From Escherichia phage vB_EcoM-UFV09, in sequence record MZ291552.2: a DNA stretch of 64,000 nucleotides. The stretch is one strand, 5' to 3'. The notes beneath the pieces were generated by a model. That model was not told where the DNA came from, did no database searches, and was given only the letters and a program-made list of their open reading frames with translations. Shown piece by piece: positions 9,905-59,500 of this stretch. The translations under genes were made by a program, and so were the position numbers. Position 1 is the first letter of the stretch, and each line of letters starts with the position of its first letter.

Positions 9905-9938
9905 TTCAAAATGAAGAAAGGGGCCGAAGCCCCTTACG
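9905..9938 (-). terminator. Rho-independent terminator downstream of hoc
   Basis: ggggc-cgaa-gcccc hairpin; on the minus strand it is followed by a U-rich tract. Confidence 0.6.
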
Positions 9939-9939
9939 A

Positions 9940-11358
9940 TTATGGATAGGTATAGATGATACCAGTTTCTAAAGCTGTTTTGTGAATGATGTATCCATTA
10001 CGCGATTCTTGGACATCAACTTCTGGATAGTCTTTCATCATCTTCTGAAGCGTATAACGATGCAAGTAGTACTTACTATCTGGGTCGTCAGTTTTCCAAT
10101 CTTTACCTTCTTCAGTCATTTTTTGGATTTCATCCATAACCCACCAACCGCACCAGATATAAGCTGAAGTACGGTGCGGAAGAGGATGAACATAAGGCAA
10201 TTCACCTTCTGGTTCTGGAGCAACTTTATCAGTCACTTGAACTTGACCTGTTGTTTTAACTGTTTTGCTATCATAATCAGTTGCTGTAACGACAGCAGTA
10301 ACTTCAATAGTTTGACTTCCAACAGATGAGGTATCGACAGTATATACGTTAGTTGACCCTTCTACAGGAGAAGAATCTTTCTTCCACGAGTAAGTAATTT
10401 GTGCTTCTTCTGGAGCATCCGTAACATTAGCAGTAAATGTAGCCGAAGCATCTTGCTGAACGTTAATAGAAGGAGGAGTCAATGTAACCTGTGGATTCAT
10501 TGTCTTCTTATTAACTGTCAATGATACTTCATTAGAAGTAACTTCCTTTTCATTGTAATTTTCTGCTGTTACTTGGGCTACGCATTTAATTCTTTTTACT
10601 CCACTTGTAGTTGGAGTATAGCTAAATGTAGAGTTAGTTTCTCCACCAACTTGTGAATCATCTACATACCATTTATATGTAGCAGACGCTCCATCAGGTT
10701 GAGAAGCTAAGGCAGCAGTAAATTGAACTGGGGTTCCAATTACTCCAGCTGAAGGACTAGCAGGAGTTACTGCCAATGTAGTTGTCTGTGTCTTTTTATT
10801 AACAGTCAGTGATACTTCATTCGAAGTAACGGTTTTTTCATCATAATTTGTCGCGGTTACTTGAGCTACACACTTGATTTTTTTAACTCCGCTTGCGGCA
10901 GGAGTGTAATTGAATGTAGCAGAAGTCGCTTCGTCTACAGGAGAACTGTCAACGTACCATTGATACGTAGCAGATGCACCTGATGGCTGCGAAGCTAAAG
11001 CAGCGGTAAATTTAACAGCTGTTCCAATTACTCCTGCTGGAGGACTATTGGGAGTTACGGCTAAGGTAGTCGTCTGAGTTTTGTTTTTGACTGTGATAGT
11101 TGTAGTAGCTTCTGCTGTTTCAGCTTCAGATTCTGGAACTGTATTTGTTGCAACAACTTTAATAGTCTTTTAACCAGCAGGACCTTTTAATACATAATCA
11201 AAAGTTGCTTCAGACCCATCTTGTGGAGCATTATCTACACTCCAAGCATAAGTAATAGTTCCACCTCCAGTTTCACCACTGGGTGCAGCAGTAAACTGCT
11301 TGGTTTCATCAATAACTCCTGACGGTGCTTTAGGAGTTATATCAACTGTAAAAGCCAT
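9940..11358 (-). pseudogene. hoc: Highly immunogenic outer capsid protein Hoc, interrupted by one in-frame TAA (plus 11170-11172); about 472 codons if read through
   Basis: N-terminal piece MAFTVDITPKAPSGVIDETKQF...LKGPAG then TAA; the same frame continues KTIKVVATN... with no further stop to 9940 (hand translation); Ig-like repeats and C-terminal capsid-binding region recognised. Confidence 0.8.
10500..11080 (-). repeat. Tandem duplicated Ig-like domain coding units inside hoc (two units of about 290 bp)
   Basis: The two DNA units align with frequent substitutions; encoded peptides LAVTPNSPPAGVIGTAVKFTAALASQPSGASATYQWYVD and LAVTPASPSAGVIGTPVQFTAALASQPDGASATYKWYVD. Confidence 0.7.
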
Positions 11359-11367
11359 AAGTTATCC

Positions 11368-12048
11368 TTATTTTAATGTTACGAAAGAAGAATTGCGTGT
11401 TTCACGAATTAAAACTGATCCGTCGCGATTAATGTAATAAATTAAGCTAAACAAAGTTTGGTGTGCTGACGCGTGTTCAAAACTAGTTGGATGAGATTTC
11501 CAATCAGGAGTTTCAGCGATCCATTGATAAATCCACCAAGGAACCGTACAGAATCCTGGATTTTTCCCCAATAATTGAAGATTCGGGCTAAAGTTTTCCG
11601 GAAGAGTAAATACAGACGGCTTTTCAGATTCAATAATCTCAGCTACAGCTTGTTCAAACTTTTCTTCAACAAAAGGAGTGTCTTCAATCAAAACATCAGT
11701 ATTTTCAGGAATTTTATCCGTTTCTACAACTTCAATTTTAATATCAGATTTAACTGGAGAATCAATCAGAAGCGCTGCTTCTGGATTAACTTCTTCATCG
11801 TCATATTTTAATCCCTCTGCAGCATCAGCAGCATCAATTAAGTCTTTAATAGATAACCCATCAGTCTCTGGCATAGGTTCACTAGCGAGCTTCTGGAGGG
11901 CTTCTTCAATATCAACAACGATATTATCAAAAGATTTATTCTTTTTGACCTTTATACCAAACTGTTCAGCATATTCAGCTAATTTAGCTTTAGCTTCTTT
12001 ATTATCATCAAGAGCCTTCAGCTCTGCAATATAATCTTTATCTATCAT
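11368..12048 (-). CDS. inh: Inhibitor of prohead protease
   Basis: 226 aa, same as T4 Inh; adjacent to hoc. Confidence 0.7.
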   Translation of the reverse strand: MIDKDYIAELKALDDNKEAKAKLAEYAEQFGIKVKKNKSFDNIVVDIEEALQKLASEPMPETDGLSIKDLIDAADAAEGLKYDDEEVNPEAALLIDSPVKSDIKIEVVETDKIPENTDVLIEDTPFVEEKFEQAVAEIIESEKPSVFTLPENFSPNLQLLGKNPGFCTVPWWIYQWIAETPDWKSHPTSFEHASAHQTLFSLIYYINRDGSVLIRETRNSSFVTLK

Positions 12049-50711: not shown

Positions 50712-53700
50712 ATGGCCGAGATTAAAAGAAAGTTCAGAGCAGAAGACGGTCTGGACGCAGGTGGTGATAAAATAATCAACGTAGCTTTAGCTGATCGTAC
50801 CGTAGGAACTGACGGTGTTAACGTTGATTACTTAATTCAAGAAAACACAGTTCAACAATATGATCCAACTCGTGGATATTTAAAAGATTTTGTAATCATT
50901 TATGATAACCGCTTTTGGGCTGCTATAAATGATATTCCAAAACCAGCAGGAGCTTTTAATAGCGTACGATGGAGAGCGTTACGTACTGATGCAAACTGGA
51001 CAACTGTTTCGTCAGGACCTTATCAATTAAAATCAGGCGAATCGATTTCAGTTAACACTGCAGCGGGTAATGACATTACATTTACTTTGCCATCTTCTCC
51101 AATTGATGGTGATACTATCGTTCTCCAAGATATTGGAGGAAAACCTGGAGTTAACCAGGTTTTAATTACAGCTCCGGTACAAAGCATTGTAAACTTTAGA
51201 GGTCAACAAGTACGCTCAGTACTAATGACTCATCCAAAATCACAGATAGTTTTAATTTTTAGTAATCGTCTGTGGCAAATGTATGTTGCTGATTATAGCA
51301 GAGAAGCGGCAGTTGTAACGCCAGCGAGTCTTTATCAAGCGCAATCAAACGATTTTATCGTGCGTAGATTTACTTCTGCTTCAGCAATTAATATTAAACT
51401 TCCTAGATTTGCTAATCATGGGGATATTATTAATTTTGTTGATTTAGATAAATTAAATCCGTTATATCATACTATCGTTACTACATACGATGAAACGACT
51501 TCAGTACAAGAAGTTGGAACTCATTCCATTGAAGGCCGTACATCTATTGATGGTTTCTTAATGTTTGATGATAATGAGAAATTGTGGAGATTATTTGACG
51601 GTGATAGTAAAGCGCGTTTACGCATTATAACAACTAATTCAAACATTCGTCCAAATGAAGAAGTCATGGTATTTGGCGCGAATAATGGAACAACTCAAAC
51701 GATTGAACTTCAGCTTCCAACTGATATTTCTATCGGTGATACTGTTAAGATTTCCATGAATTACATGAGAAAAGGACAAACAGTTAAAATCAAAGCTGCC
51801 GGTGAAGATAAAATTGCTTCTTCAGTTCAATTGTTGCAATTTCCAAAACGTTCAGAATACCCACCTGAAACTAAATGGGTGACTGTTCAAGAATTAGTTT
51901 TTAACGGCGAAACTAATTATGTTCCAGTTTTACAGCTTGCTTATATCGAAGATTCCGATGGAAAATATTGGGTTGTACAGCAAAACGTTCCAACAGTTGA
52001 AAGAGTAGACTCTTTAAATAATTCTACTAGAGCAAGATTAGGTGTAATTGCATTAGCTACACAGGCTCAAGCTAATGCAGATTTAGAAAATTCTCCACAA
52101 AAAGAATTGGCAATTACTCCAGAAACGTTAGCTAATCGTACTGCTACAGAAACTCGTAGAGGTATTGCAAGAATAGCAACAACTGCGCAAGTAAACCAGG
52201 ATACCACATTCTCTTTTGCAGATGACCTTATCATCACTCCTAAAAAGTTGAATGAAAGAACTGCTACAGAAACTCGCAGAGGTGTCGCAGAAATTGCTAC
52301 GCAGCAGGAAACTAATACAGGTACTGATGATACTACAATCATTACTCCTAAAAAGCTTCAAGCTCGCCAAGGTTCTGAATCATTATCTGGTATTGTAACT
52401 TTTGTATCTACTGCAGGAGCTACTCCAGCTTCTAGCCGCGAATTAAATGGTACGAATGTTTATAATAAAAACACTAATAACTTAGTTGTTTCACCTAAAG
52501 CCTTGGATCAGTATAAAGCTACTCCAACACAGCAAGGTGCGGTAATTTTAGCAGTTGAAAGTGAAGTAATTGCTGGACAAAGTCAAGAAGGATGGGCAAA
52601 TGCGGTTGTAACGCCAGAAACGTTACATAAAAAGACATCAACTGATGGAAGAATTGGTTTAATTGAAATTGCTACTCAAAGTGAAGTTAATACAGGAACT
52701 GATTATACTCGTGCAGTCACTCCTAAAACTTTAAATGACCGTAGAGCAACTGAAAGTTTAAGTGGTATAGCTGAAATTGCTACACAAGTTGAATTCGACG
52801 CAGGCGTCGACGATACTCGTATCTCTACACCATTAAAAATTAAAACTAGATTTAATAGTACTGATCGTACTTCAATTGCTACACAAGTTGAATTCGACGC
52901 AGGCGTCGACGATACTCGTATCTCTACACCATTAAAAATTAAAACTAGATTTAATAGTACTGATCGTACTTCTGTTGTTGCTCTATCTGGATTAGTTGAA
53001 TCAGGAACTCTCTGGGACCATTATACCCTTAATATTCTTGAAGCAAATGAGACACAACGTGGTACACTTCGTGTGGCTACACAAGTTGAAGCTGCTGCCG
53101 GAAAATTAGATAATGTTTTAATAACTCCTAAAAAGCTTTTAGGTACTAAATCTACCGAATCGCAAGAAGGTGTTATTAAAGTTGCAACTCAGTCTGAAAC
53201 TGTGGCTGGAACGTCAGTAAACACTGCTGTATCTCCAAAAAATTTAAAATGGATTGTACAGAGTGAACCTACCTGGGCAGCTACTACTGCGATAAGAGGT
53301 TTTGTTAAAACTTCATCTGGTTCAATTACATTTGTCGGTAATGATACAGTCGGTTCTACCCAAGATTTAGAACTGTATGAGAAAAATAGCTATGCAGTAT
53401 CACCATATGAATTAAACCGTGTATTAGCAAATTATTTGCCATTAAAAGCAAAAGCTGCAGATAGTAATTTATTGGATGGTCTAGATTCATCTCAGTTCAT
53501 TCGTAGGGACATTGCGCAGACGGTTAATGGTTCACTAACCTTAACCCAACAAACGAATCTGAGTGCCCCTCTTGTATCATCTAGTACTGCTACGTTTGGT
53601 GGATCAGTTTCAGCAAATAGTACATTAACTATTTCTAATACTGGAACAGCAACTCGATTGATTTTTGAGAAAGGACCTCAAACTGGAACAAACCCAGCCC

Positions 53701-56531: not shown

Positions 56532-59500
56532 ATGGCTACTTTAAAACAAATACAATTTAAAAGAAGCAAAACGGCAGGTCAACGTCCAGCTGCTTCAGTA
56601 TTAGCCGAAGGTGAATTGGCTATAAACTTAAAAGACCGTGTACTTTTTACTAAAGATGACCAGGGAAATATTATTGATTTAGGTTTTGCTAAAGGCGGTA
56701 GTATTGACGGGAATGTTATTCATAAAGGCAATTATAACCAAACTGGAGATTATACTTTAAACGGTACATTCACCCAGACTGGTAATTTTAATTTAACCGG
56801 TATTGCTCGAGTAACTCGTGATATTATTGCTGCTGGGCAGATTATGACTGAAGGCGGAGAACTTATTACAAAAAGTTCAGGTACATCACATGTTCGTTTT
56901 CATGATTCAGCTGACCGTGAACGCGGTATTATTTTTTCTCCTGCTAATGATGGATTAACTACACAAGTAATTAACATCAGAGTTCAAGATTACAAAGCCG
57001 GTTCAGAAAATACTTTTTCTTTTAGCGGTAGTGGTCTTTTCACATCGCCGGAAGTTTCTGCATGGAAATCTATGTCAACCCCCCAGATTTTGACTAACAA
57101 AGTCATTACTAATAATAAATCTACGAGTGATTATGACATTTATTCGATGGCAGACAATGTTCCATTGTCTGAAAGCACTACTGCTATTAATCATCTTCGT
57201 GTTATGCGTAATGCAGTTGGTTCTGGTATTTTTCATGAAGTTAAAGATAATGATGGAATAACATGGTATAGTGGAGATGGATTAGATGCTTATCTGTGGT
57301 CATTTACCTGGAGCGGCGGAATTAAATCAAGTCACTCAATTTCCATCGGTTTAACACCCGGACCTAAGGATTACTCAATATTAGGACCGTCTAGTATCGC
57401 TTTAGGAGATAATGATACTGGATTTAAATGGCATCAAGACGGATATTATTTCAGTGTTAACAATGGCACAAAAACGTTTTTATTTAGTCCCAGCGAAACA
57501 ACTAGCCTAAGAAAATTTGTAGCTGGATATTCTACTAACGGAACCGATTTAACTACTCCTCCAACTGAAAATTATGCTCTTGCTACTGTAGTGACATACC
57601 ACGATAATAACGCGTTTGAAGATGGTCAGACTCTTTTAGGATATTATCAAGGCGGTAATTATCATCACTATTTCCGCGGTAAAGGTACTACAAACATTAA
57701 TACTCACGGTGGTTTGTTAGTTACTCCTGGTAATATTGACGTTATTGGTGGTTCTGTTAATATCGATGGTAGAAATAATGCTTCTACACTGATGTTTAGA
57801 GGTAACACAACTGGTAGTAGTTCAGTTGATAATATGACAATTTCCGTTTGGGGCAATACGTTTACTAATCCTAGTGTAGGTAATCGTAAAAACGTCATGG
57901 AAATTTCTGATGCAACTAGTTGGATGAGCTATATTCAAAGACTTACAACAGGTGAAGTAGAAATGAACGTTAACGGTTCATTTGAATCATCTGGTGTTAC
58001 TGCTGGAAATAGAGGAGTTCACACAACAGGCGAAATTTCATCTGGAGCAGTGAATGCGCTTCGTATTTGGAACGCAGATTATGGAGCCATTTTTAGACGT
58101 TCAGAAGGTAGTCTTCATATTATTCCGACTGCTTATGGTGAAGGCAAAAATGGTGATATCGGTCCACTTCGTCCATTTAGTATTGCTTTGGATACTGGTA
58201 AGGTTGTTATTCCAGATTTAGAATCAAGTTATAACACGTTTGCTGCAAATGGCTACATTAAATTTGCTGGTCATGGCGCGGGTGCAGGTGGTTATGATAT
58301 TCAGTATTCACAAGCTGCTCCTATTTTCCAAGAAATCGATGATGCTGCTGTAAGCAAATATTATCCTATTGTTAAACAGAAGTTTTTAAATGGTAAAGCT
58401 GTCTGGTCTTTGGGTACTGAAATTAATTCTGGTACATTTGTTTTACATCATTTGAAAGAAGATGGTTCACAAGGCCATACATCAAGATTTAATGCTGATG
58501 GTACAGTCAATTTCCCCGATAACGTTCAAGTCGGTGGTGGTGAAGCTACTATTGCTCGTAATGGTAATATTTTCTCAGATATTTGGAAATCGTTTACTTC
58601 TGCGGGAGAAACCACAAATATTCGCGATGCAATAGCTACTCGTGTTGCCAAAGAAGGCGATACGATGACTGGCAAATTAATCGTTAAAAGAGGCTCTGAC
58701 GCTATTAACATTGCTGCCGATGAAAATGATTCTTGCTATTTACTTGGAACATCGGGTGGAGCGAATTCATGGTACATTGGTAAAGGAGGAGCAGATGACA
58801 CTGCTTCATTTTATAATTTCAAAACTACCGCAGGAATTACTCTTAATAGTGTTGGTGATATTGATTTTAACGTTAAAAATCAAGCTACTGCAGCTTCATT
58901 AAATTTTTATCGTTTATATTTAAATGGAAGACAGTGGACAGCTACACAAGGACATGGATATAATAATCAATGGCAAACAGAAGCCCCATTCTTCGTTGAC
59001 TTTGGCGAATCTGTTCCGAAAGATAGTTATATGCCTATAATTAAAGGAAGAAGCCAAATCATTAACGAAGGATATGCCACAAAGGCAGATTTTGGTATTA
59101 TTCGATTAGGCGGAAATGCTACTTGGGGAAATGCAGTAATTCGTGTTGGTTCTGCAGAAAGCGGAGATAGCAGTCATCCTAATGCAATATTTGTGTTTCA
59201 GGCTAATGGCGATTTTAAAGCTCCGGCTGGCCTTCGTGCTGGTGTTAACTTGGGCGTCGGCACAATTCCAGTATGGGGCGGAGCATCTATCGCCATCGGT
59301 GATGATGATACCGGTTTAGTTCATGGCGGCGATGGTCGAATTAATATGTATGCTAACGCGCAGCATATTGCATCATGGGGCACGATGTATCAATCTCATC
59401 CAGGCCTTTGGGATTCATATGGAGCTTTTTGGACAGAAGTTGGCAAAGCAATTATTTCTCATGGCCATTTAGTTCAGGCGAATGACAGTTATTCCACATA

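Follow-up and report, generated by a model that had tools for sequence, protein, structure and literature searches.

A premature ochre codon very probably inactivates hoc in the T4-like Escherichia phage vB_EcoM-UFV09

Hoc is a dispensable head-decoration fibre of T4-like phages. It is thought to tether these phages to mucus, and it serves as the main scaffold for phage display and vaccines in T4. Phage T2 has classically been described as being without Hoc. A loss of Hoc through a single base change is known from T4 HAP1 (T4-delta-Hoc, Dabrowska laboratory), in which codon 166 of hoc changed spontaneously from CAA to TAA and no Hoc was detected by ELISA (PMC10580926). When hoc was removed from T4, the latent period and the burst size were normal (PMC9271167).

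The locus described here lies in a stretch of 64,000 nucleotides of Escherichia phage vB_EcoM-UFV09 (MZ291552.2), the whole of which is referred to as the window. Megablast placed the locus in Tequatrovirus, with 100% identity to vB_EcoM-UFV10 and vB_EcoM-UFV11 (T4-like Escherichia phages from Brazilian wastewater), 99.9% to UFV05 and UFV06, and 98.6% to ECP52, in which the gene is annotated as an intact head decoration protein of 472 aa. The gene order is the one found at T4 hoc, i.e., uvsW, inh, hoc, two small genes, RNA ligase 2, gp24 and gp23. The inh gene (226 aa) adjoins hoc upstream on the same strand, and the DUF2774 gene, the Y10B gene and Rnl2 are located downstream, which matches the T4 arrangement. 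The hoc frame runs on the minus strand from the ATG at 11358 to the natural TAA at 9942..9940. The entire reading frame (9940..11358) is 1419 nt long and contains 473 codons with the natural stop, which would correspond to a protein of 472 aa if codon 63 were Gln. The Shine-Dalgarno sequence AAGGA of hoc (11365..11369, minus strand) is located just past the inh stop codon, and its pairing with the tail of the 16S rRNA was calculated at -6.0 kcal/mol.

The conceptual Hoc protein showed a Pfam match to PKD (E = 4e-10) and weaker matches to Ig. It contains four Ig domains and the binding domain (472 aa), compared with three Ig domains in T4 (376 aa), and the 1419-nt and 1131-nt length forms of hoc are each common among related phages. 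Two adjacent Ig-like domains are encoded by two tandem units of 288 nt (96 codons) at 10501..11076 on the minus strand, and the units are 75% identical. The C-terminal capsid-binding region was located at 9943..10230 (minus strand) by comparing the translation with T4, with the definition and limits of the domain taken from PMC10385173. The last ~94 residues (VAPEPEGELPYVHPLPHR...IIYTYP) are almost the same as in the T4 capsid-binding domain.

In the frame, ...FDYVLKGPAG is followed by TAA (11172..11170) and then by KTIKVVATN..., and this ochre codon at position 63 (11170..11172, minus strand) is the sole internal stop, far upstream of the capsid-binding region. A preliminary description of the window, made from its letters, had reported a single in-frame TAA at hoc codon 63 in an otherwise intact frame that stays open to the natural end at 9940. 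The coordinates, the codon number, the flanking peptides and the gene end were all correct, and 409 sense codons follow the TAA with no other stop. Since stops are expected about every 15 codons at the composition of hoc, and 410 stop-free codons would occur by chance with a probability of ~1e-12, the stretch after the TAA is real coding sequence.

Codon 63 is CAA in T4, as the preliminary description had stated, as well as in ECP52, UFV05, UFV06, FN, SfPhi01 and UPWr_E2, and it is ACA in JK42. Read on the plus strand, the window has A at position 11172, where UFV05 and UFV06 have G. Since CAA was found in every intact relative compared, the lesion is a C-to-T transition that created an ochre TAA, and the single C-to-T ochre mutation suggested earlier was thus supported. 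Apart from this lesion and a second one carried by the siblings UFV05 and UFV06, hoc is identical to that of the siblings, and the ochre lesion is therefore evolutionarily very young. The exact 35-mer containing the TAA version was not found in IMG/VR or in the JGI metagenomes. With the variable position left free, the 35-mer matches only one IMG/VR contig, which has C there and thus CAA at codon 63; with a single contig of this kind, the absence of the TAA version is uninformative on whether the allele is of natural or laboratory origin.

As in HAP1, a single C-to-T change turned a Gln codon, CAA, into TAA in hoc, and the sense codon from which it departs is that of the closest intact relatives; HAP1 is viable. 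The two alleles differ in position, since the stop is at codon 166 of 376 in HAP1 and at codon 63 of 472 in the window. They also differ in origin, HAP1 having been selected in the laboratory from T4, whereas the window allele is found in wastewater isolates with a hoc of four Ig domains. While the Hoc-less phenotype was demonstrated for HAP1, it is predicted for the window. The intact four-Ig Hoc of ECP52/ECO4 (472 aa) has 98.6% DNA identity to the window, with equal length, domain layout and neighbouring genes, but with CAA instead of TAA at codon 63 and ~20 scattered substitutions. In the window the frame is closed at codon 63 and a full-length protein is not encoded. Judged from its sequence, the locus is best classed as a hoc null allele or a young pseudogene, and not as a functional member of the family.

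In GenBank, the automatic annotation breaks hoc up into four ORFs, one of 62 aa, one of 278 aa and two that are tiny. The 62-aa product is labelled 'capsid and scaffold protein' in UFV10. The 278-codon ORF (9940..10776, minus strand), which has its own annotation as a 'capsid and scaffold protein', begins at a TTG that has no Shine-Dalgarno sequence, with a pairing energy of -0.9 kcal/mol compared with -6.0 kcal/mol at the genuine start of hoc. The GenBank records also list 'hypothetical proteins' at 11061-11156 (minus strand, 31 aa) and 10861-10983 (plus strand, 40 aa). The 278-codon ORF and these two ORFs are most likely artefacts of ORF calling on the broken hoc frame.

The simplest objection to a genuine stop is that the true codon is CAA, that the T arose in sequencing or assembly, and that normal Hoc is produced. 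The assemblies do contain artefacts, since every record that was examined has a perfect 99-bp tandem duplication of its own, each located elsewhere in the genome, and the annotation of the record is fully automatic. However, an exact-sequence look-up showed that the identical 62-aa product was deposited for UFV09, UFV10 and UFV11, so the T recurs in three separately deposited genomes, at least two of which differ elsewhere. As UFV10 and UFV11 differ elsewhere and are distinct assemblies, the base call was reproduced across separate assemblies. The three phages may derive from one stock, in which case the recurrence confirms the base call and does not imply three independent biological events. 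In addition, there is no homopolymer at the site, a C-to-T substitution is atypical as a systematic error, and the different lesion in the siblings indicates that hoc is truly being hit within the group. A sequencing error, which the preliminary description had kept as an option, is thus very unlikely. An edited-in stop codon was ruled out as well, because the TAA stands in the GenBank records themselves. With a real stop, useful amounts of full-length Hoc could still be made if the codon were bypassed by readthrough or by an ochre suppressor of the host or the phage. The frame beyond the TAA is perfectly intact, as such a bypass would have it, and T-even phages are able to evolve suppressor tRNAs; the suppressors of T4 psu mutants evolved from the phages' own tRNA genes. 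The youth of the lesion nevertheless accounts for the intact frame, as hoc shows no further difference from the siblings. The tRNA scan covered the genome apart from ~20 kb and took in the tRNA cluster of UFV10 and the window. None of the 11 tRNAs of the UFV10 cluster has the ochre suppressor anticodon UUA, the tRNA-Gln has UUG, and no tRNA gene is present within the 64-kb window. A phage-encoded ochre suppressor was rejected, since all 11 anticodons of the cluster are ordinary. The stop context is UAA followed by A, and UAA, which is recognised by both release factors, shows the lowest readthrough of the stop codons in E. coli. A 96-nt fold around and after the TAA was no better than those of shuffled sequences (z = 0.05), providing no sign of an RNA structure that stimulates readthrough. 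The TAA is also unconserved, with a sense codon (CAA, or ACA in JK42) in every relative compared. Programmed readthrough or recoding at this site was rejected on the basis of the unconserved stop and the lack of a stimulatory fold. Moreover, HAP1 has an ochre codon in the same gene and is without Hoc. These results make a productive bypass extremely improbable.

Translation might instead resume downstream of the TAA and yield a C-terminal part of Hoc. The capsid-binding domain is C-terminal and modular, Hoc proteins that are naturally short, having one or two Ig domains, are known (PMC10385173), and the depositors annotated the 278-aa ORF from the TTG at 10776. All in-frame starts were scanned for pairing with the 16S rRNA tail, and none was convincing, so that internal re-initiation was rejected. 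There is no in-frame ATG, GTG or TTG across the 131 codons following the TAA. The pairing energies of TTG195 and ATG287 are -0.9 and -1.5 kcal/mol, respectively, values that do not stand out from the rest of the gene (mean -1.4 kcal/mol) and are far from the -6.0 kcal/mol of the true start. Better-paired starts were found at codons 387 and 408, but they fall within the capsid-binding domain or on its border, and initiation there would truncate it. In HAP1 the stop at codon 166 is upstream of the Met that matches ATG287, and yet no Hoc was found on the capsids. We consider that there is very little chance of a C-terminal Hoc being made in this way. Weighing these alternatives, we propose that the locus carries a genuine and very recent loss-of-function allele of hoc, produced by the ochre codon at position 63, and we regard this reading as very probable.

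According to this proposal, one C-to-T transition would have changed the Gln codon 63 from CAA to the ochre TAA. Ribosomes would initiate normally at the intact hoc start and halt after 62 residues. The part of hoc expected to be translated (11170..11358, minus strand) comprises these 62 codons and the stop; it covers about two thirds of the first Ig-like domain and does not reach the capsid-binding domain. The remainder (9940..11169, minus strand) is open, and its 409 sense codons, which are followed by the natural stop, would presumably be left untranslated. The resulting virions would be viable and Hoc-less, with empty hexamer centres. Their surface charge and clustering would be altered, and the adherence to mucus mediated by the Ig domains would be lost. 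Hoc-less virions are the most likely outcome, considering that the 62-residue fragment is without the capsid-binding domain. Since no phage ochre suppressor, no readthrough structure and no usable restart were found in the regions scanned, a Hoc-less capsid is expected. A strong intrinsic terminator hairpin, GGGGC-TTCG-GCCCC with a T-rich tail (9908..9935, minus strand), lies directly after hoc, where 'terminator' is annotated in related records. Because of this terminator, the downstream genes should escape the effect of the premature stop. The soc homologue of UFV10 was uninterrupted in a tblastn search with an approximate T4 Soc query; as a lead based on this query, Hoc alone appears to be lost and Soc to be kept.

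The siblings UFV05 and UFV06 have CAA at codon 63, but their hoc carries a 1-bp deletion at codon 27, CCCAGTGGT to CCCGTGGT, which causes a -1 frameshift. The base deleted in these phages corresponds to position 11280 (minus strand) and is intact in the window. Since each lineage and all outgroups are wild type at the lesion of the other lineage, the hoc of their ancestor was intact and the gene was inactivated twice. This second, independent knockout makes a real and possibly selected null likelier than an accident or an error.

The number of differences within the clone is small. The window differs from UFV06 by six point differences across 64 kb, and six further differences between UFV10 and UFV06 were found in the first 96 kb of the records. 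The total between UFV10 and UFV06 is therefore 12 differences in ~160 kb, two of which are in hoc, a gene that makes up 0.86% of the genome. The chance that at least two of 12 changes of any kind fall in hoc is P = 0.0046, or 0.0062 when 14 events are counted. Nonsense changes are 4.6% of the possible substitutions in hoc. No null mutation in any other gene was seen among the differences between UFV10 and UFV06 over the ~160 kb. Eight point differences were found in the window region among UFV05, UFV06, the UFV10-like window and UFV11, and seven of the eight are non-synonymous or knockouts: two hoc knockouts, four amino-acid changes in gp37 and one change in motA, the last difference being synonymous. 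The differences in gp37 (gene 37, distal long tail fibre, plus strand) are located at window positions 57619, 59361, 59379 and 59418. An E-to-G change sets UFV10 and the window apart, Q-to-E and G-to-S are private to UFV05, and UFV06 alone has Y-to-N, so that every sibling has a gp37 change of its own; of the four changes, three are grouped close to the tip that binds the receptor. Outside the window, UFV10 and UFV06 differ at two points in gp12, the short tail fibre, both towards its C-terminus (88495 and 88501 in the UFV10 record). The change in motA (minus strand, window 63947) is N-to-S near the N-terminus of MotA, and the synonymous change (GGC/GGT) is in an alt-like gene (minus strand, window 24468); both separate the UFV10/UFV11 lineage from the UFV05/UFV06 lineage.

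The changes in gp37 and gp12 among the siblings suggest host-range selection. The pattern of differences is the one expected from selection on the virion surface, and it could reflect host-range adaptation that took place either in the source population or later, while the phages were isolated and propagated. Because the sister lineage independently destroyed hoc, the loss of Hoc may have been favoured in this lineage and not just tolerated, whether in the source water or in the course of isolation and propagation; we consider the arguments for and against this to be evenly balanced. On the other side, the mutations are few and hoc is a large non-essential target, so that chance together with relaxed constraint may suffice. 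Hoc has been credited with benefits, i.e., dispersion of virions and adherence to mucus (PMC10385173), and no demonstrated advantage of Hoc loss was found in published work. The stronger proposal, that Hoc loss was positively selected here and perhaps commonly is in T4-like phages outside mucosal settings, is put forward tentatively and is rather less probable. If it were true, the presence or absence of Hoc would be a surface trait that is subject to a trade-off and is switched rapidly, and an A7 tract in hoc could be a slippage-prone switch.

This A7 tract, GTTAAAAAAATC, encodes part of an SGVKKIKC motif in an Ig domain and is located at window positions 10884..10878 on the minus strand (hoc nt 475-481), where it is intact. 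The tract is shortened to A6 in T2 and UPWr_E2 and lengthened to A8 in vB_EcoM_FN, and each of these changes is a frameshift in hoc. The tract may be a hot spot of slippage or a hot spot of sequencing error, and it could conceivably act as an on/off switch of Hoc.

Fragmented annotation of hoc was found in four of 60 records (UFV10, T2, JK42 and vB_EcoM_FN) taken as an evenly spaced sample of the 678 matching phage records, and it was also found in SfPhi01 and UPWr_E2, which came from among the best matches and stand outside the 60-record sample. Like the window, UFV05/UFV06, UPWr_E2, vB_EcoM_FN, SfPhi01 and JK42 have a broken hoc in an otherwise complete T4-like genome. The lesions in these relatives are indels of 1-2 bp, several of them in the A7 tract, for which sequencing error is a real alternative, whereas the lesion of the window is a base substitution. 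In T2 (PV958097.1, 162447-163863), hoc has decayed to a pseudogene whose frame is disrupted at least three times, and it is annotated as three 'Hoc-like' fragments. As in the window, an inactivated gene stands in a Tequatrovirus genome with its neighbouring genes intact. The T2 gene is, however, old and decayed, its disruptions including the A7-to-A6 change, while the window has a single lesion and no other decay.

No paper on the UFV05, UFV06, UFV09, UFV10 and UFV11 phages was found in the literature searched, and the window allele and the parallel knockout in the siblings appear to be undescribed there. The event itself is of a known kind, concerning a well-known gene and a well-known type of mutation, with published (HAP1) and natural (T2) analogues. 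A Hoc-less phage in a wild-type background with a hoc of four Ig domains might be used as a control in display or adherence experiments. If the UFV phages were used in therapy or biocontrol, their capsids would probably be without Hoc, and aggregation, immunogenicity and retention in mucus would be changed. The repeated and independent loss of hoc in isolates, twice within one clone, argues that Hoc is costly in some environments. Hoc is nevertheless conserved across hundreds of phages despite this repeated loss, and the broader argument on cost needs a proper survey and competition experiments.

Apart from hoc, the window contains a perfect 99-bp tandem duplication at 52775-52972, which adds 33 codons in frame to gene 34 (the proximal subunit of the long tail fibre, plus strand). 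The duplication is missing from UFV10, UFV11, UFV06 and UFV05, although the window and UFV10 are otherwise 100% identical. Private perfect tandem duplications of the same length were observed in the ADP-ribosyltransferase gene of UFV10 at ~11.8 kb and, within the first 96 kb compared, in gp8 of UFV06 at ~83.5 kb. These duplications look like an end overlap of the assembler k-mer (k = 99) that was kept when the circular contigs were rotated, and not like biology.
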